IMG/VR virus record: IMGVR_UViG_2609459804_000023
Source of the DNA: a virus
Lineage: Duplodnaviria; Heunggongvirae; Uroviricota; Caudoviricetes
Direction: 5' to 3' (one strand)
Length of the DNA stretch: 6,173 bases
In this document: piece by piece, positions 761 to 6,173 of the stretch
How positions within the stretch are numbered: position 1 is the first letter of the stretch
Layout: each line of letters starts with the position of its first letter
Translations under genes and position numbers: made by a program
Notes under the pieces: model-generated
Told to the model about the DNA's origin: nothing
Databases searched by the model: none
What the model saw: only the letters and a program-made list of their open reading frames with translations

Positions 761-907
761 ATCGCCAGGATGATTTCTCAGATAACAGGAGTTGATATTC
801 AGTATTGCCGGAGGCGGGTCGTGTGGTGCGAGAGGGTCCTTGATTCAGAAATGTTTTATGCAATGAAGCGAGAATTGGAGAAAGAACTTCTAGTGATTAC
901 TGGATGA
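761..907 (+). pseudogene. Open frame running from the IS1 boundary to a TGA at 905-907; possible 3' remnant of the late antiterminator Q gene interrupted by IS1
   Basis: Only one of the three plus frames is open across 761-904 (IARMISQITGVDIQYCRRRVVWCERVLDSEMFYAMKRELEKELLVITG*); the in-frame ATG at 770 has no usable Shine-Dalgarno; the stop lies about 25 bp upstream of a PR'-like promoter, which is where Q ends in lambdoid phages. The Q identity is inference by position, not sequence recognition. Confidence 0.3.
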
Positions 908-931
908 TGCAAAATATTTTTTGTAAATGCG

Positions 932-960
932 TTGCTTTCGAGAAATGAAAGTAGTATGTT
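932..960 (+). promoter_or_regulatory. Candidate late promoter PR' (-35 TTGCTT 932-937, 17-bp spacer, -10 TATGTT 955-960), likely including the Q-utilisation region
   Basis: Sigma70-like hexamers with 17-bp spacing located about 110-130 bp upstream of a strong terminator, the arrangement of lambdoid PR'-tR'. Confidence 0.4.
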
Positions 961-966
961 TTGTGT

Positions 967-1095
967 ATGCTCGGAGCAAAAGCGCACTGAGAAGCGAAAG
1001 AGAAATCCTGATTTACCTCGGTCGTCGATAATATTTAGGATCGGCATACTGGCTAGATTAGGTAAAGGCCTCGGCAGAAATGTCGGGGCTTTTTG
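967..1095 (+). ncRNA. Short PR'-to-tR' transcript (lambda 6S-RNA-like terminated late leader; approximate 5' end)
   Basis: Region between the candidate PR' and the tR' hairpin with no convincing ORF; by analogy with lambda 6S RNA and the terminated PR' transcripts of Stx phages. Confidence 0.35.
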
Positions 1096-1098
1096 TTT
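1068..1098 (+). terminator. Intrinsic terminator tR' (9-bp stem, GAAA tetraloop, T-run)
   Basis: gcctcggca-gaaa-tgtcggggc followed by tttttgttt; the downstream sequence gcacaacaggtaagagcattga resembles, from memory, the sequence immediately after lambda tR'. Confidence 0.75.
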
Positions 1099-1171
1099 GC
1101 ACAACAGGTAAGAGCATTGAACCCGCAGACCTCGTGGAATTGGTGAAAGGTGTGCGCAGTGCTCTTATCGT

Positions 1172-1298
1172 TGTGGTGAAGCTCAATGGCGAGCTAGCAG
1201 ACAGGCGACTGTGAAAATACTAGTCATGTAGCGGATCGCCGCGCGTATTGTAATCGGCAGCGCACCGATGGGAGCTGGTTCGATTCCGGCCGCCACAA
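1172..1298 (+). pseudogene. tRNA-like relic: acceptor 5' strand plus D-arm (1172-1194) and T-arm plus acceptor 3' strand (1274-1297) separated by too much sequence for a functional tRNA
   Basis: tgtggtg (1172-1178) pairs perfectly with cgccaca (1291-1297); D-arm gctc-aatggc-gagc; canonical T-arm gctgg-ttcgatt-ccggc; total span about 125 nt with no canonical anticodon loop and no encoded CCA. Confidence 0.35.
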
Positions 1299-1414
1299 TC
1301 CAAACTGAGCCGTAGCCTCTGGGTGTCCTGAATTCATCAGTGATAGTTACGCTGCGGCCTTCTACATACGATTTTTGTGAAAAGCGGGTGGCAAGAGGCT
1401 GCGAAATTTTTAAA

Positions 1415-1636
1415 TACCTCACAATTCCACAGCTTGATGATTGTCTGGCTGCCGGAGAATTTGTTAAAAATTACATCGCGTGGTGAATCCCCCTCAGCGG
1501 CGGGGCATCTGGCAAAGTGTATGATCCAGCGAACATGCAAATTCAGTAGCCAGGCTGAATTTACCGGGAGGCACCTGGCACCATGCGACAGACAGAAATT
1601 AGGCTATACTTCAGCCCCTCTCCGGAGGGGCTTTTC
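1415..1636 (+). repeat. Module A of a tandem triplicated element (candidate small-RNA or attenuator unit) ending in an intrinsic terminator
   Basis: Shares ordered conserved blocks with 1881-2120: tcacaattc, attgtctggc, tttgttaaaaa, ggtgaatccccct, a conserved-stem hairpin (1489-1506), accgggaggcacc.tgcaccatgc, and the terminator agcccctc-tccg-gaggggct-ttt. Indels shift the reading frame between copies. Confidence 0.6.
1613..1636 (+). terminator. Intrinsic terminator of module A (8-bp GC-rich stem, UCCG loop, T-run)
   Basis: agcccctc tccg gaggggct tttc. Confidence 0.8.
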
Positions 1637-1677
1637 TGTGCAGGATGTGTCACAGTTTCCTGAATTCTGAGTACTGT

Positions 1678-1849
1678 CCTGTTACTCAGGGTGCTATATT
1701 TTCTGACGTGATGAAAGTCTGCCGGAAGGCGGAACGTATCGGAAATGACCCAGTAGAGAAAACGTTGACTCAGATACCGATGCTGAGTTACCGGGAAACC
1801 GGCATCACATGACCGCTATCCTTCCAGGCTCGCTCCGGCGGGCCTTTTT
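1678..1849 (+). repeat. Module B, a shortened and more diverged copy of the same element
   Basis: Retains gttactca, gatga..gtctg..ccgga, gctgagttaccgggaaaccggcatcacatg and a terminator with the same UCCG loop. Confidence 0.5.
1827..1849 (+). terminator. Intrinsic terminator of module B
   Basis: ggctcgc tccg gcgggcc ttttt (7-bp stem with one G-U pair). Confidence 0.75.
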
Positions 1850-1880
1850 ACTGCAGAAAACAGTTTTCCCGTAAAATGCC

Positions 1881-2120
1881 ACGTTACTCACAATTCAGGC
1901 TGGCGATTATTGTCTGGCCAGCGGGAAGTTTGTTAAAAAAATATGGCATGGTGAATCCCCCTGTGCGGAGGGGCATATCAGCGACAGGTGTTTGGTCACA
2001 CCCCTTATCCTTTCTGGTGCGGGTTCAGGTGCTGATACTGAACTCACCGGGAGGCACCCTGCACCATGCATGAACGGTACATAGCGCTACTCTCCAGCCC
2101 CTCTCCGGAGGGGCTTTCTT
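1881..2120 (+). repeat. Module C of the tandem triplicated element, ending in an intrinsic terminator
   Basis: Same ordered conserved blocks as module A, a hairpin at 1957-1974 with conserved stem and different loop, and an identical terminator stem-loop at 2096-2115; preceded by a -10-like TAAAAT at 1872-1877. Confidence 0.6.
2096..2120 (+). terminator. Intrinsic terminator of module C
   Basis: agcccctc tccg gaggggct ttcttgtt. Confidence 0.7.
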
Positions 2121-2127
2121 GTTGGAT

Positions 2128-2157
2128 AAAAAAAAGCCCGCGCCGGGAAGCGCGGGT
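2128..2157 (-). terminator. Minus-strand intrinsic terminator (hairpin preceded on the plus strand by A8), convergent with the module C terminator
   Basis: aaaaaaaa gcccgcgc cgggaa gcgcgggt: read on the minus strand this is an 8-bp GC stem followed by U8. Confidence 0.5.
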
Positions 2158-2357
2158 GGCAAGGAATAAACAACAAAACGTGAAGTGATCAATTTTCAGC
2201 TGGCGAATAATACCCGACAGTAATCACTCTGCGCAACTGTATGGTCTTTTTCGTATTGCGGGCTGTAGTCATCCTCCTGTTTCTGAACCCTTGTCCATGA
2301 CTGACGTCAGCCCGCACCTTATCTTGATTGCATACACTATCCCTGCCGGGAGGAATA

Positions 2358-4331
2358 ATGGCATTTAAACACTATGACGTGGTCAGGGCATCATCGCCGT
2401 CAGACCTCGCAGGAAAACTGACGCAAAAACTGAAGGAAGGCTGGCAACCCTATGGTAGTCCGATTATCTCAAACGCGGGTTATGGTGCTGAATTTATCCA
2501 GGCTATAGTCGCTGAAGGGGATATGACCTCTCCGGTAGTTTCACCGGGGGGAGATGGTACCCGGACTGTTGTTGTTGAACCAGAATATTACTTTGTCATT
2601 GCGCTGGCCGGACAGTCAAACGGCATGGCGTATGGTGAAGGTCTGCCGCTGCCGGAGACATATGACCGTCCGGACCCGCGTATTAAACAGCTGGCGCGTC
2701 GCAGTACGGTGACACCGGGTGGTGCGGCCTGTGCATATAACGACATCATTCCGGCGGACCACTGCCTGCATGATGTGCAGGATTTGAGCCGTTTTTCTCA
2801 TCCGAAAGCCAGCGCAGAGCAGTATGGGTGTGTCGGACAGGGATTGCATATTGCCAAAAAGCTGTTGCCCTTTATGCCGGAAAATGCGGGTATTTTGTTA
2901 GTGCCGTGCTGTCGTGGTGGCTCTGCGTTTACAGCCGGTGCTGACGGAACGTTCAGTGAAAGTTCAGGAGCGTCGGATAAATCTGAACGATGGGGCGTTG
3001 ATAAGCCGTTGTATAAAGACCTGCTGACACGCACTCAGGCCGCGCTGAAGGCAAACCCCAAAAACATACTGCTTTGTGTTGTCTGGATGCAGGGCGAGTT
3101 TGATTTAAAACAGGGAGCGTACGCCAGTCAGCCCGCCATGTTTGATGCCATGGTGGAAAAATACCGTTCTGACCTGGCGGGAGTATCCGGTCAGTGCGCT
3201 GGTGCTTCTCCTTCTCTGGTGCCCTGGATTTGTGGTGACACGACGTACTACTGGAAGGAGACGTATTCAGCGCAATACGATGCCGTCTATGGCGCATACA
3301 AAACCAAAGCCGGTAAAAATATCTTCTTTGTGCCGTTTATGATGGATGACAATGGTCAGAAAGTCGGGACCAATGAACCGTCAGAAGACCCGGATATTCC
3401 GGCTATCGGGTATTATGGTTCCGGTGGACGAACGGATGCGAAGAGCTGGACAACATCCGATCGTAAAACCCACTTTGGTTCATGGGCGCGTCGCGGAATT
3501 ATTTCCGACCGTCTGGCAACAGCCATTCTTCTGCATGTGGGCAGAGTGGCAGATTTTGTTTCCGGGAAAGTGACAAAAGCCGCGGTTTCTTCAGGCGGAG
3601 GCGTATCGCAACCAGCACAGGAGAGTGGCGATACTCAGCCTGAATCCGTTGTCCCGACAAAGATACAGTCAGTGCTGGCTTATGATGCGAATGCGGAAAA
3701 TGCCGATCTGGCTTCGCAGGGCTGGACGCTGACAGATGTCAAAAACACGCTGGTCAGTGACAGTGGTTCAGGTAAAAAAGCCCTTCGTCTTGAAAAACCA
3801 GAAAATGGTCTTGCACAGAAAAAGACCTGGAAAGTATCGCACGCAATTGATGCCGGTAAGGGGAAGGAGCTGTTCGATAACGGCGGTGAAATCACGCTGC
3901 GCTTTAAAATCCCCGATGATGTATCTCTCAATGCTTCTGCAAATCAATATTCTGCGGGTATTTACTGGCGCGGTAGTGGATGGCCGGGAGCGGAATCAGA
4001 GGAGGGTTATATTGCGGCCTTCTATCTGCAGACTGATAAAACAAACATCAATGTGATGTATCATGCAAACACCACATCACAGCGGCTTGGTAGTTATGGT
4101 CCGTTCGATCACGACTGGCACACGCTGACTTTCCGCTTCCCGGGTGGTGGCTCGCTGAACGTCACGCCGGTGCTTGATAATGCAGCAGGAAAACCGTTTA
4201 CGCTGACCAGATGGACGAATGCAGCCTTTGAGGCCAACGCGCTGGCAATTACGGATATTACCGGAAATGCGGCAACTTACCCTGTGCTGATTGAAAGTCT
4301 TACTGTTGGTGTGAATGCCGTAGCAGCATAA
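2358..4331 (+). CDS. nanS: Prophage-encoded sialate O-acetylesterase of the NanS-p type (N-terminal DUF1737-like region, SGNH/SASA esterase core with GQSN motif, about 250-aa C-terminal domain)
   Basis: 657-aa ORF; GGGAGG at 2348-2353 four nt before ATG 2358; N-terminus MAFKHYDVVRASSPSDLAGKLTQKLKEGWQPYGSPIIS and motif FVIALAGQSNGMAYGEG are characteristic of the family; location between the late regulatory region and the holin matches nanS-p in EHEC lambdoid prophages. The ORF-track start at 2328 is probably an upstream in-frame ATG without a ribosome-binding site. Confidence 0.88.
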   Translation: MAFKHYDVVRASSPSDLAGKLTQKLKEGWQPYGSPIISNAGYGAEFIQAIVAEGDMTSPVVSPGGDGTRTVVVEPEYYFVIALAGQSNGMAYGEGLPLPETYDRPDPRIKQLARRSTVTPGGAACAYNDIIPADHCLHDVQDLSRFSHPKASAEQYGCVGQGLHIAKKLLPFMPENAGILLVPCCRGGSAFTAGADGTFSESSGASDKSERWGVDKPLYKDLLTRTQAALKANPKNILLCVVWMQGEFDLKQGAYASQPAMFDAMVEKYRSDLAGVSGQCAGASPSLVPWICGDTTYYWKETYSAQYDAVYGAYKTKAGKNIFFVPFMMDDNGQKVGTNEPSEDPDIPAIGYYGSGGRTDAKSWTTSDRKTHFGSWARRGIISDRLATAILLHVGRVADFVSGKVTKAAVSSGGGVSQPAQESGDTQPESVVPTKIQSVLAYDANAENADLASQGWTLTDVKNTLVSDSGSGKKALRLEKPENGLAQKKTWKVSHAIDAGKGKELFDNGGEITLRFKIPDDVSLNASANQYSAGIYWRGSGWPGAESEEGYIAAFYLQTDKTNINVMYHANTTSQRLGSYGPFDHDWHTLTFRFPGGGSLNVTPVLDNAAGKPFTLTRWTNAAFEANALAITDITGNAATYPVLIESLTVGVNAVAA

Positions 4332-4337
4332 CAGACG

Positions 4338-4373
4338 AAAAAAACCGCCAGCAACAGGAATGGAGACTGGCGG
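4338..4373 (-). terminator. Hairpin with flanking A7 just after the nanS stop; possible weak or antisense-direction terminator
   Basis: aaaaaaa ccgccag (15-nt loop) ctggcgg; U-tract only on the minus strand; the loop is long, so weak. Confidence 0.25.
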
Positions 4374-4471
4374 AGGTAATCCCAATGGAGAATCTAACGA
4401 AAGGATGCTTTCGACATCAATCATTTCTAAATGAAAACAGTTCTCATTGTCAACAGTAACGGTAATAAACC

Positions 4472-4666
4472 ATGACATTCATCAACCAGTTAATGCTGTA
4501 CTTCTGTACGGTGGTCTGTGTGTTGTATCTGCTTTCGGGTGGATACAGGGCAGTACGCGACTTCTGGCGCAGACAGATTGACAAAAGGGCCGCTGAGAAA
4601 ATCAGCGCCACTCAGTCAGCCGGAGCAAAAACAGAAGCCCCACTCATTCCGGAACAACCTTCTTAA
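4472..4666 (+). CDS. Hypothetical small membrane protein (64 aa, N-terminal transmembrane segment, basic C-terminal tail)
   Basis: ORF MTFINQLMLYFCTVVCVLYLLSGGYRAVRDFWRRQIDKR...; hydrophobic N-terminus; weak Shine-Dalgarno; sits 25 bp upstream of the next ORF. Confidence 0.35.
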   Translation: MTFINQLMLYFCTVVCVLYLLSGGYRAVRDFWRRQIDKRAAEKISATQSAGAKTEAPLIPEQPS

Positions 4667-4691
4667 TAACCCCTTTCAACGAGAAAATCTC

Positions 4692-4982
4692 ATGACAGAT
4701 ATAAAACAACTGGTCACTGCTGAGGCAGTGAAGGAAGTCATTCGCTCTGAAGAAGTCAGAAGCGTCCTGAAACAAAAACTCCGCCAGAATCTGGAAGAGC
4801 GTCTTGATGCAGAAGTGGATTCAATTCTGGATGAATTGCTTGGTGCACAGCCGGAACCATCCCCGGAACTGCTTCCGGAACCACAGGCGGAAGATGTCAC
4901 CACGGAAAATGGTGATATTCAGCCGGAGTCACCGGTGACGGATATGACAGACACACAACCCGAACCGGGCACAATGCTGTAA
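4692..4982 (+). CDS. Hypothetical acidic protein (96 aa; N-terminal helical region, Pro/Glu-rich low-complexity C-terminus)
   Basis: In-frame ATG at 4692 (MTDIKQLVTAEAVKEVIRSEEVRSVLKQKLRQNLEERLDAEVDSILDELLGAQPEPSPELLPEPQAEDV...); the longer ORF-track version from 4518 overlaps the preceding ORF in another frame and is less likely. Confidence 0.45.
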   Translation: MTDIKQLVTAEAVKEVIRSEEVRSVLKQKLRQNLEERLDAEVDSILDELLGAQPEPSPELLPEPQAEDVTTENGDIQPESPVTDMTDTQPEPGTML

Positions 4983-4993
4983 CGGCGGGGCAG

Positions 4994-5024
4994 GGCCATC
5001 AGTAAAACACTGATGGCCTTTTTT
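4994..5024 (+). terminator. Strong intrinsic terminator immediately upstream of the holin gene
   Basis: ggccatcag-taaaaca-ctgatggcc (perfect 9-bp stem) followed by tttttt. Confidence 0.8.
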
Positions 5025-5058
5025 ATTTCCGGTAGCACAGGTCTGTCGGGGCGGGGAT

Positions 5059-5274
5059 ATGTATCAGATGGAAAAAATATCAACGGGCATAGCCTATGGT
5101 ACTTCTGCGGGCAGTGCGGGTTACTGGTTTCTACAGTGGTTGGATCAGGTTACTCCGTCACAGTGGGCTGCTATCGGGGTTTTGGGGAGCCTGTGTCTGG
5201 GGTTCCTGACATACCTGACGAATCTGTATTTCAAAATTAAAGAGGACCGTCGCAAGGCTGCCCGGGGAGAGTGA
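5059..5274 (+). CDS. S: Class II holin of the phage 21 S21 pinholin type with dual-start motif (71-aa antiholin from ATG 5059, 68-aa holin from ATG 5068)
   Basis: [71 protein letters not shown] is near-identical, from memory, to S21; two hydrophobic segments; GGGGA placed optimally for the second ATG. Confidence 0.88.
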
Positions 5275-5278
5275 TTAG

Positions 5279-5812
5279 GTGACTCAGAAACTCCACTATG
5301 GTTTATCGGTAGCCGTTCTGGCGCTGATTGCGGCAGGTGCTTCTGCGCCTGAAATCATCGACCAGTTTCTTGACGAAAAAGAAGGTAACCACACCACGGC
5401 ATACCGTGATGGTGCGGGGATCTGGACCATCTGCCGTGGTGCCATCATGGTGGATGGCAAACCTGTCGTCCCGGGCATGAAGTTGTCGAAGGAAAAATGC
5501 GACCAGGTTAACGCCATTGAGCGTGATAAGGCGCTGGCATGGGTGGAGAAAAACATCAGAGTGCCACTGACCGAACCCCAGAAAGCGGGGATCGCGTCAT
5601 TCTGTCCGTACAACATCGGGCCTTCGAAATGCTTCACCTCAACGTTTTACCGGAAACTGAACGCCGGAGACCGGAAAGGTGCATGTGCTGAAATCCGCCG
5701 ATGGATATATGACGGCGGCAGGGACTGTCGGAATCGCTCAAATAACTGTTACGGGCAGGTATCGCGGCGTGACCAGGAGAGCGCGCTGGCGTGCTGGGGA
5801 ATTGACAGATAA
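5279..5812 (+). CDS. R: SAR (signal-arrest-release) endolysin, T4-lysozyme-like glycoside hydrolase family 24; GTG start
   Basis: N-terminal SAR-like segment GLSVAVLALIAAGASAP; catalytic E-x8-D-x5-T triad in EGNHTTAYRDGAGIWT; positioned 4 nt after the pinholin stop, the usual pinholin plus SAR-endolysin pairing. Confidence 0.92.
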   Translation: MTQKLHYGLSVAVLALIAAGASAPEIIDQFLDEKEGNHTTAYRDGAGIWTICRGAIMVDGKPVVPGMKLSKEKCDQVNAIERDKALAWVEKNIRVPLTEPQKAGIASFCPYNIGPSKCFTSTFYRKLNAGDRKGACAEIRRWIYDGGRDCRNRSNNCYGQVSRRDQESALACWGIDR

Positions 5813-5902
5813 GCAGAATATTTTGCTGAAAAATGCGGTTTGCTCACACGGACGGATAACACGAAATCCTGCGAACTGACAAAAACTAAGTGAATAAAAG
5901 TA

Positions 5903-5937
5903 AAAACCCCGTTTGTTGGCTGCAAGCGGGGTTTTGT
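5903..5937. terminator. Bidirectional intrinsic terminator downstream of the endolysin gene
   Basis: aaaaccccg...cggggtttt hairpin with inner ttg/caa extension, A-rich upstream and T-rich downstream, so U-tracts exist in both orientations. Confidence 0.7.
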
Positions 5938-5968
5938 GTTTCTGACCTTGGATAAGGCAAGGGAGAAC

Positions 5969-6151
5969 ATGGAAAAGTATAAACGAATTCTGTTGAGGTT
6001 GACTATGAAAAACGGCCTTGAACTGAAAGCGCCTGTAACTGATGACATCAGCAGAGCACTGGCTTTTGCCATTAAGTGGGTGGCGGTCGGTGTTGCTGTG
6101 TCCCCGATGCTGTATGGGCTGGCAAAACTGGTCATTGCGTTGAAATCGTGA
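5969..6151 (+). CDS. Hypothetical small membrane protein (60 aa from ATG 5969; C-terminal transmembrane segment)
   Basis: MEKYKRILLRLTMKNGLELKAPVTDDISRALAFAIKWVAVGVAVSPMLYGLAKLVIALKS; aagggaga ribosome-binding site just upstream; the ORF-track GTG start at 5936 lies inside the terminator hairpin and is unlikely. Confidence 0.35.
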   Translation: MEKYKRILLRLTMKNGLELKAPVTDDISRALAFAIKWVAVGVAVSPMLYGLAKLVIALKS

Positions 6152-6165
6152 AGGGAGGATTAAGC

Positions 6166-6173
6166 ATGTCAGA
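6166..6173 (+). CDS. 5' end of the next gene (only ATG TCA GA in window); by position possibly the i-spanin Rz
   Basis: Strong Shine-Dalgarno agggagg at 6152-6158 followed 7 nt later by ATG at 6166; the gene continues beyond the window. Confidence 0.25.

Follow-up and report, generated by a model that had tools for sequence, protein, structure and literature searches.

An intact nanS-p-type esterase gene behind an IS1-interrupted Q-like gene in a putative stx-negative lambdoid prophage

The DNA considered here is a 6,173-nucleotide (nt) stretch of a tailed-phage genome, IMG/VR virus record IMGVR_UViG_2609459804_000023, which is referred to at its full length as the window. On its plus strand, at 2358–4331 with the stop codon included, lies nanS-p, a gene that encodes 657 amino acids (aa) and contains no internal stop. 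There is very little doubt that its product belongs to NanS-p, the prophage sialate 9-O-acetylesterase family of the lambdoid phages. The open reading frame (ORF) has the domains, the motifs and the fold of this family and is set in a conserved gene order, from which stx is absent and into which an IS1 element has inserted. The fuller explanation, to which a probability of roughly 80% is given, is that of a three-module protein encoded in the late operon. By analogy with its homologues, this protein would be enzymatically active, bind sialoglycans and be displayed on the phage capsid, and its expression would depend on Q, a route that the IS1 insertion would have damaged.

The family, the fold, the enzymology, the genomic position and the occurrence of nanS-p without stx have all been published, and annotations of this very protein exist in hundreds of E. 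coli assemblies. An earlier note, made from the letters of the window, had described a NanS-p-type sialate O-acetylesterase gene retained in a prophage that lacks stx. This identification is correct, but it was already known.

Identity and Extent of the nanS-p Gene

The ORF that encloses nanS-p extends from 2328 to 4331 on the plus strand, and the ATG at 2358 is its eleventh codon. This ATG is taken as the start because a Shine–Dalgarno sequence (GGGAGG, 2348–2353, from reading of the sequence) lies 4 nt upstream and because the resulting N-terminus, MAFKHYDV, is common to the homologues, which begin with MAFKHYDV or MTFKHYDV. The TTG at 2328 was ruled out as a start on the same two grounds. 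The coordinates 2358–4331 given earlier are therefore exact, and the ORF is intact.

Searches against Pfam returned NanS-p's three domains in their usual order, each above its curated cutoff: DUF1737 at aa 3–53 (61.7 bits, cutoff 24), SASA at aa 83–274 (38.3 bits, cutoff 24.8) and DUF6645 at aa 508–618 (94.6 bits, cutoff 27). The SASA and DUF1737 matches that the earlier note had anticipated from a profile search were thus both obtained. The PHROG family phrog_143 matches the protein from end to end (E=4.5e-299), while a search of NCBIfam gave no match and was uninformative. A pseudogene was ruled out, as the ORF has zero internal stops and its product shows 100% identity to P0002, which represents an E. 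coli cluster of 387 members formed at 90% identity.

A search with the full-length protein gave 1571 matches. The next NanS-p cluster stands at 79% identity and the bulk of the family at 55–64%, with the same three Pfam domains throughout. The C-terminal 230 aa, used as the sole query, recovered one partial protein, which reflects the limit of the word index and is no sign of rarity. Of the 5426 complete E. coli genomes compared at the DNA level (megablast), only 20 contain this allele at full length; some form of nanS-p was found in 1160, and a single genome may match in as many as 8 places.

The protein is 58% identical overall to the NanS-p of phi24B and to that of a phage carrying Shiga toxin (Stx) type 2a. 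It shares its domain order, the SGNH/SASA motifs, Tyr42 and Gly54, and four aromatic residues of the C-terminal domain with the NanS-p proteins of 933W (z1466/L0105) and phi24B (vb_24B_21, also known as gp84). A hydrophobic N-terminus was looked for and none was found (maximum 15-aa hydropathy of 0.87); NanS-p has no signal peptide.

The Esterase Domain and Its Active Site

The SGNH/SASA esterase domain occupies aa 71–391 (2568–3530). It aligns with E. coli NanS (YjhS, PDB 3PT5) over 321 residues, from one end of the catalytic domain to the other (phmmer against PDB, E=3.3e-118), and the esterase region at aa 76–397 is 72% identical to that of phi24B. SASA esterases are defined by block I, GQSN, which supplies the serine nucleophile and the adjacent glutamine of an inverted oxyanion hole, by block III, (H)QGE, and by the histidine of block V (PMC9487903). 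All three are found in the present protein. The nucleophile is Ser87 (2616–2618) within GQSN at aa 85–88, which aligns with the GQSN serine of 3PT5. Block III is the QGE at aa 245–247 (3090–3098) within WMQGEFD, aligned to the same motif of 3PT5, and block V contains His372 (3471–3473) in RKTH, aligned to the histidine of RSSH.

The block V aspartate is absent from both proteins. It has been reported that the NanS subfamily, including EcNanS, naturally lacks this residue (PMC9487903), and only the serine and histidine are therefore to be expected. The earlier note had proposed that the lack of any catalytic Ser, His or Asp would speak against an esterase. The serine and histidine were found as foreseen, but the aspartate asked too much of a NanS-type enzyme, and its absence as an argument against esterase function was ruled out. 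Together with the three Pfam domains, the two catalytic residues bear out the assignment as a NanS-p-type sialate O-acetylesterase.

Studies have shown that the NanS-p alleles of EDL933 and O104:H4, which reside in several prophages, are active on 5-N-acetyl-9-O-acetylneuraminic acid (Neu5,9Ac2) and on mucin and support growth there (PMC8065619). By analogy, the dyad of Ser87 and His372, with an oxyanion hole formed by Gln86 and QGE, would remove the 9-O-acetyl group from Neu5,9Ac2, whether free or bound in mucin glycans. This de-O-acetylation would open the sugar to sialidases and to the Nan pathway.

The C-Terminal Lectin-like Domain

E. coli NanS is a single-domain enzyme (the 3PT5 chain has 337 residues), whereas NanS-p has in addition the DUF1737 anchor and a C-terminal lectin-like domain. 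The latter is a predicted beta-sandwich at aa 436–654 (3663–4319) with DUF6645 as its core, and aa 437–653 match the crystallized C-terminal domain of a NanS-p (PDB 6YP6, E=1.3e-43). An AlphaFold2 model of aa 428–657, built with 27 homologues, is nearly all beta, with a predicted local distance difference test score (pLDDT) of 87.5 and a predicted template modelling score of 0.87. The modelled fold is a concanavalin-A-like beta-sandwich close to the lectin modules of sialidases.

The sequence is 12% identical to the lectin domain of Vibrio cholerae sialidase (PDB 2W68, 1W0O). We take that domain to be of the CBM40 type; its partner enzyme is a sialidase, in contrast to the esterase of NanS-p. 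The likeness of the model to it is a structural resemblance and not shown CBM40 membership. For vb_24B_21, the aromatic residues Y510, Y515, Y540 and F611 have been proposed to line a sugar site (PMC10462455), and their counterparts Y531, Y536, Y556 and F624 are conserved here. The 6YP6 match, the model and the retained aromatics agree with the earlier expectation of a beta-rich, lectin-like and possibly carbohydrate-binding domain, and such a domain had already been published for NanS-p (Franke et al. 2020, as cited in PMC8065619). By analogy, the domain probably holds the enzyme on sialoglycans.

The earlier note had placed a separate Gly/Asn/Thr-rich domain in the last 250 or so residues, from about VSQPAQESGDTQPES onward. 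The extent is right to within about 30 residues, but the folded part begins at around aa 436 and VSQPAQESGDTQPES (aa 416–430) lies within the preceding linker 2. This linker (aa 398–435, 3549–3662) is 15% identical to that of phi24B, 13 aa longer and devoid of an SSP motif, and the first five residues of the model (aa 428–432) have a pLDDT below 50. When aa 401–657 were compared with aa 1–400, the enrichment was borne out for Asn (6.2% vs 2.2%) and Thr (8.6% vs 5.2%), but not for Gly (10.1% vs 10.5%).

With 43.5% identity to phi24B, the C-terminal domain is the most variable of NanS-p. This variability would suit a specificity module that tracks surface glycans, and it has a bearing on what the substrate is. 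A virion-borne esterase could strip O-acetyl groups from O-antigen or capsule for access to a receptor, in the manner of tailspike deacetylases. A bacterial substrate has been raised as an open possibility in a review (PMC8065619), and the SASA/CE6 members include acetylxylan esterases, so that the family is not limited to sialic acid (PMC9487903). A bacterial substrate is nevertheless regarded as very improbable. The divergence of the C-terminal domain makes it a reasonable candidate for a comparative study of glycan binding.

The N-Terminal Domain and Proposed Capsid Decoration

The DUF1737 domain (2364–2516) corresponds to the capsid-binding domain of the phi24B homologue. Proteomics and cryo-electron microscopy (cryo-EM) have identified phi24B gp84 as an abundant capsid-decoration protein, which is among the most abundant bands of the virion and is seen on the hexons (2026 preprint 10.64898/2026.04.10.717836). 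Hexamers of DUF1737 sit on the central hexons of the T=9 capsid with Tyr42 as the anchor, the density stops at Gly54, and processing takes place after release (preprint 10.64898/2026.04.10.717836). In the protein studied here, aa 1–54 are 81.5% identical to vb_24B_21, with both Tyr42 (2481–2483) and Gly54 (2517–2519) conserved. By analogy, DUF1737 would attach NanS-p to the centres of capsid hexons.

SSP motifs in the linkers of gp84 have been put forward, as a manual proposal only, as putative autoproteolysis sites (preprint 10.64898/2026.04.10.717836). No SSP was found in either linker of the present protein, where the sole SSP is at aa 12 within DUF1737. Linker 1 is 21% identical to that of phi24B.

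Among the relatives, the major capsid protein is 94–95% identical to that of phi24B in PhiR5_2 (PV340546) and in all nine contigs that reach the capsid gene. These nine all carry the identical NanS-p; one of their capsid genes is cut by the end of the locus, and a tenth contig has no head genes.

Linker 1 also contains a G6 tract (2545–2550) directly after DUF1737. PhiR5_2 has G7 at this place (about L002 7785), which breaks its nanS-p into two ORFs, one of 73 aa for DUF1737 and another for the esterase together with the lectin-like domain. Either this frameshift is a sequencing error in the homopolymer, or it shows that a propagating phage can do without the full-length protein.

The earlier note had called the gene a host-fitness moron. 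In its pure form, this would be lysogenic conversion alone: enzyme released from a few lysing cells would feed the lysogens with de-O-acetylated sialic acid, and the protein would have no role in the virion. Such is the published view, founded on the EDL933 and O104:H4 alleles, with which lysogens grow on Neu5,9Ac2 and mucin is de-O-acetylated (PMC8065619, PMC10462455). The up to 8 places that match nanS-p in some E. coli genomes suggest a dosage benefit, and PhiR5_2 was propagated on MG1655 with its frameshifted copy, which, if real, would make the full-length protein dispensable for the phage. However, decoration proteins are normally dispensable, and the frameshift may be the sequencing error already mentioned. 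DUF1737 has no catalytic role and is nonetheless 81.5% conserved, including the capsid-anchoring tyrosine; the phi24B-type capsid gene co-occurs in every relative that reaches it; and the phi24B homologue is abundant in virions and located on their hexons according to the preprint. A benefit to the host is thus on record for homologues, but the moron label is incomplete and has to be weighed against the capsid-decoration evidence. As a complete account, lysogenic conversion without a virion role is considered quite unlikely, and display on the capsid is the preferred reading.

Genomic Context and the Absence of stx

The gene is located in the late lambdoid region, between the remnant of a Q-like gene and the genes for holin and lysozyme, and the same location is seen in 10 contigs with an identical NanS-p and in phi24B. 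In all ten, ninH is followed by an ORF of 80 aa, the Q-like gene, non-coding DNA, NanS-p and the lysis genes, and then by a terminase, a portal of the P22 type and a capsid protein of 404 aa. Over window positions 761 to 6173, PhiR5_2 shows 99% identity, and its portal and capsid proteins are 97% and 95% identical to those of phi24B, respectively.

A tblastn search with Stx2A and Stx2B (E<=1e-5) gave no match to the window and none to 13 related loci, which upholds the earlier statement that stx is lacking. The stxA and stxB genes that characterize a Stx-converting phage, located between Q and nanS-p, are accordingly not present. Because the relatives lack stx and have capsid and portal proteins like those of phi24B, the prophage is classed, on sequence comparison, as an stx-negative member of the short-tailed group of phi24B and 933W. 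NanS-p alleles in non-Stx prophages have been published (PMC10462455, PMC8065619).

Compared with the phi24B and 933W loci, nanS-p has the same place between Q/stx and the lysis genes and the same STnc100-like element on its 5′ side, and relatives of the window share the phi24B-type capsid gene. The differences are that stx and the upstream tRNA genes are absent and that the Q-like protein is of 204 aa (phrog_753) rather than the 144-aa Q933. In one of the 10 contigs (locus L013, 8797–9231), the identical NanS-p lies behind a 144-aa Q of the Q933-like type (PF06530), with a shorter intergenic region and one STnc100 copy. This arrangement indicates that the Q module and the number of small RNA (sRNA) modules have been exchanged independently of nanS-p.

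Three STnc100-like modules lie in tandem on the plus strand between the Q-like remnant and nanS-p, and each ends in an intrinsic terminator. The strong module at 1448–1641 scores 139.9 bits against Rfam RF02076 (gathering score of 47) and has its terminator at 1613–1632. The weak module at 1677–1852 reaches 30 bits, which is under the gathering score, with a terminator at 1826–1845. The proximal module at 1917–2126 scores 129.9 bits and terminates at 2096–2115. The Stx phages phi24B (L004 22902–23107) and Stx2_95 (L003 4989–5203) have one STnc100 element between stxB and nanS-p, 207–222 nt on the 5′ side of nanS-p. Since these phages carry the same element in that place, comparison of the loci identifies the proximal module as a constant partner of nanS-p and not as a substitute for the toxin.

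The earlier note had held that the module array occupies the position of the toxin. This was imprecise: a toxin position is likely to exist at about 1850–1928, but the proximal module belongs to the Stx phages as well, and replacement of stx by all three modules was rejected in that part. The placement follows from two observations. The DNA homology of the window to Stx phages begins at about 1929, and the stretch 1824–1849, where the weak module has its terminator hairpin, agrees in 23 of 26 positions with a phi24B terminator 5′ of stxA (L004 21941–21966), annotated as “rho-independent terminator upstream of the Stx genes”. It also matches the equivalent site of Stx2_95 (L003 3594–3619). An empty stx slot is therefore probably located at about 1850–1928; the 26-nt match is short and suggestive only.

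To speak of nanS-p as retained implies a loss of stx, whereas the data show nanS-p as a constant of this phage type. What stays constant is the gene together with its preceding STnc100-like element; in those Stx phages that were examined, stx is found upstream of this pair. A recent preprint describes the combination of a PasD/STnc100-like sRNA, a sialic acid esterase, a holin and a lysozyme as a common arrangement, connects STnc100 with the PasD sRNAs flanking the esterase, and reports that, of the neighbouring PasA genes found on bacterial chromosomes, fewer than 3% adjoin stx (2026 preprint 10.64898/2026.05.13.724894).

ARAGORN found no tRNA genes in the window. At about 1240–1310, where Stx phages have tRNA genes, there is a tRNA-like 3′ fragment (…GGTTCGATTCCGGCCGCCACAATCCA), and the only Rfam match to this stretch is tmRNA-like, at 13.5 bits (1269–1339). 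It may be a tRNA remnant.

A strong minus-strand terminator-like hairpin (2137–2156, CCCGCGCTTCCCGGCGCGGG followed by T8) immediately follows the proximal STnc100 module. The antisense sRNA AsxR of phi24B is found at the equivalent position (L004 23109–23161), and the Rfam models for AsxR and AgvB gave no match in the 2137–2156 region. The hairpin may belong to a divergent antisense sRNA.

The IS1 Insertion and Expression of nanS-p

An IS1 element occupies 1–760 on the plus strand, as recognized from PHROG matches to InsA and InsB and from its sequence ends; the start of the window is estimated to be nt 9 of IS1. The earlier note had passed over this insertion, which matters for the expression of nanS-p. 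Homology to the relatives begins at 761, immediately after the element. There follows at 761–907 the 3′ remnant of the Q-like antiterminator gene, which consists of the last 47 codons and the stop (translation IARMISQITGV...). The intact gene in a relative (L001 5533–6147) encodes 204 aa, lies after ninH and matches phrog_753, “anti-termination protein Q-like” (E=3e-68); a Pfam search with it gave no match.

The IS1/Q junction was absent from the 5426 complete E. coli genomes, where megablast returned only IS1 itself with spurious extensions of about 86% identity. It was also absent from the 10 contigs with an identical NanS-p, and an exact scan of one genome per species was likewise empty. 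The insertion is probably recent and private to the strain, and probably cripples late-gene expression.

The region between the remnant and nanS-p (908–2357) is non-coding, and a consensus scan found no sigma-70-like promoter on the plus strand there. The late operon has nanS-p as a constant component, placed after Q/PR′ and ahead of the lysis cassette, and the gene would normally be reached by Q-dependent read-through of the three terminators. It has been reported that NanS-p expression goes up on induction (PMC8065619, PMC10462455). Because IS1 interrupts the upstream Q-like gene, Q-dependent expression of nanS-p is doubtful in this prophage. With its cognate Q-like gene cut, nanS-p has probably lost the normal route of expression, barring an identical Q that works in trans. 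The intact ORF does not, in consequence, imply an expressed enzyme.

Taken further, these observations could mean that nanS-p is a silent passenger of a decaying prophage, in which late transcription has stopped and the ORF is intact simply because the insertion is recent. The 47 of 204 Q-like codons left downstream of IS1, the three terminators and the lack of a recognizable promoter point in this direction. The junction, found in 0 of 5426 genomes and 0 of 10 contigs, looks recent and private, and the complete identity to the cluster representative suggests too little time for decay. Yet the window does not cover the 5′ part of Q, and a functional Q may remain; a second prophage could, moreover, supply an identical Q in trans. 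The gene could also have a promoter of its own or one supplied by IS1, and basal expression without induction has been reported for other alleles (PMC10462455). A silent gene is judged somewhat unlikely. It would concern expression in one strain and not the identity of the gene, with which it is compatible.

Appraisal of the Proposed Function

Since NanS-p has no signal peptide, its release would be limited to virions and lysis, and the protein would reach the gut lumen by one of these two routes. There, DUF1737 would keep it on the capsid and the C-terminal beta-sandwich, most like the sialic-acid-binding modules of sialidases, would keep the enzyme on sialoglycans while the esterase acts.

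Several points weigh against this explanation. Block V reads RKTH, while the alleles of Stx phages have RSSH, RASH or RPTH (PMC10462455). The esterase assays were made with other alleles, and the identities to the NanS-p of phi24B and of the Stx2a phage are those given above, 58% overall and 43.5% in the C-terminal domain. The capsid role comes from one unreviewed preprint on a different allele, that of phi24B. Linker 2 lacks the putative autoprocessing motif SSP of phi24B gp84, and TSP and VSP take its place in linker 1. The window contains no head genes, and the capsid type of the prophage is deduced from its relatives. The antiterminator label of the Q-like gene comes from phrog_753 and the position after ninH only. 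Finally, the promoter scan was a crude consensus match, and a private nanS-p promoter is possible.

A broader reading may be envisaged. The allele could have a glycan specificity of its own and be displayed on the T=9 capsids of the stx-negative, phi24B-like phages that commensal E. coli carry, in a manner resembling the haemagglutinin-esterases. In that case, nanS-p would be primarily a structural and ecological gene of the phage, beside which stx was inserted later. The basis for a distinct specificity is that the allele falls in its own 90%-identity cluster and that its lectin-like domain is 43.5% identical to the crystallized one. This reading is speculative and is thought unlikely.

The viral haemagglutinin-esterases, namely HEF of influenza C and HE of toro- and betacoronaviruses, display on the virion an SGNH-type sialate O-acetylesterase joined to a jelly-roll lectin domain and provide reversible attachment to O-acetylated sialoglycans. 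They are membrane glycoproteins of enveloped animal viruses, whereas NanS-p is soluble and would be held on the phage capsid by DUF1737, a display shown for phi24B only. The analogy is a functional one. If it were true, a sialoglycan-binding module and a receptor-destroying esterase would let virions bind to, and move through, the O-acetylated mucus of the colon.

Downstream Late Genes

Four plus-strand genes follow nanS-p, as assigned from Pfam and PHROG matches: a DUF1378 gene (4472–4666), a DUF826 gene (4692–4982), a gene for a P21-type holin (5059–5274) and a lysozyme gene (5279–5812). phi24B and all the relatives have these genes in the same order. A strong intrinsic terminator with a 12-bp stem and T5 is located on the plus strand at 4992–5020, after the DUF826 ORF and ahead of the holin gene. 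The genes for the sRNAs pasA and pasC have been placed between the esterase and the holin (preprint 10.64898/2026.05.13.724894).

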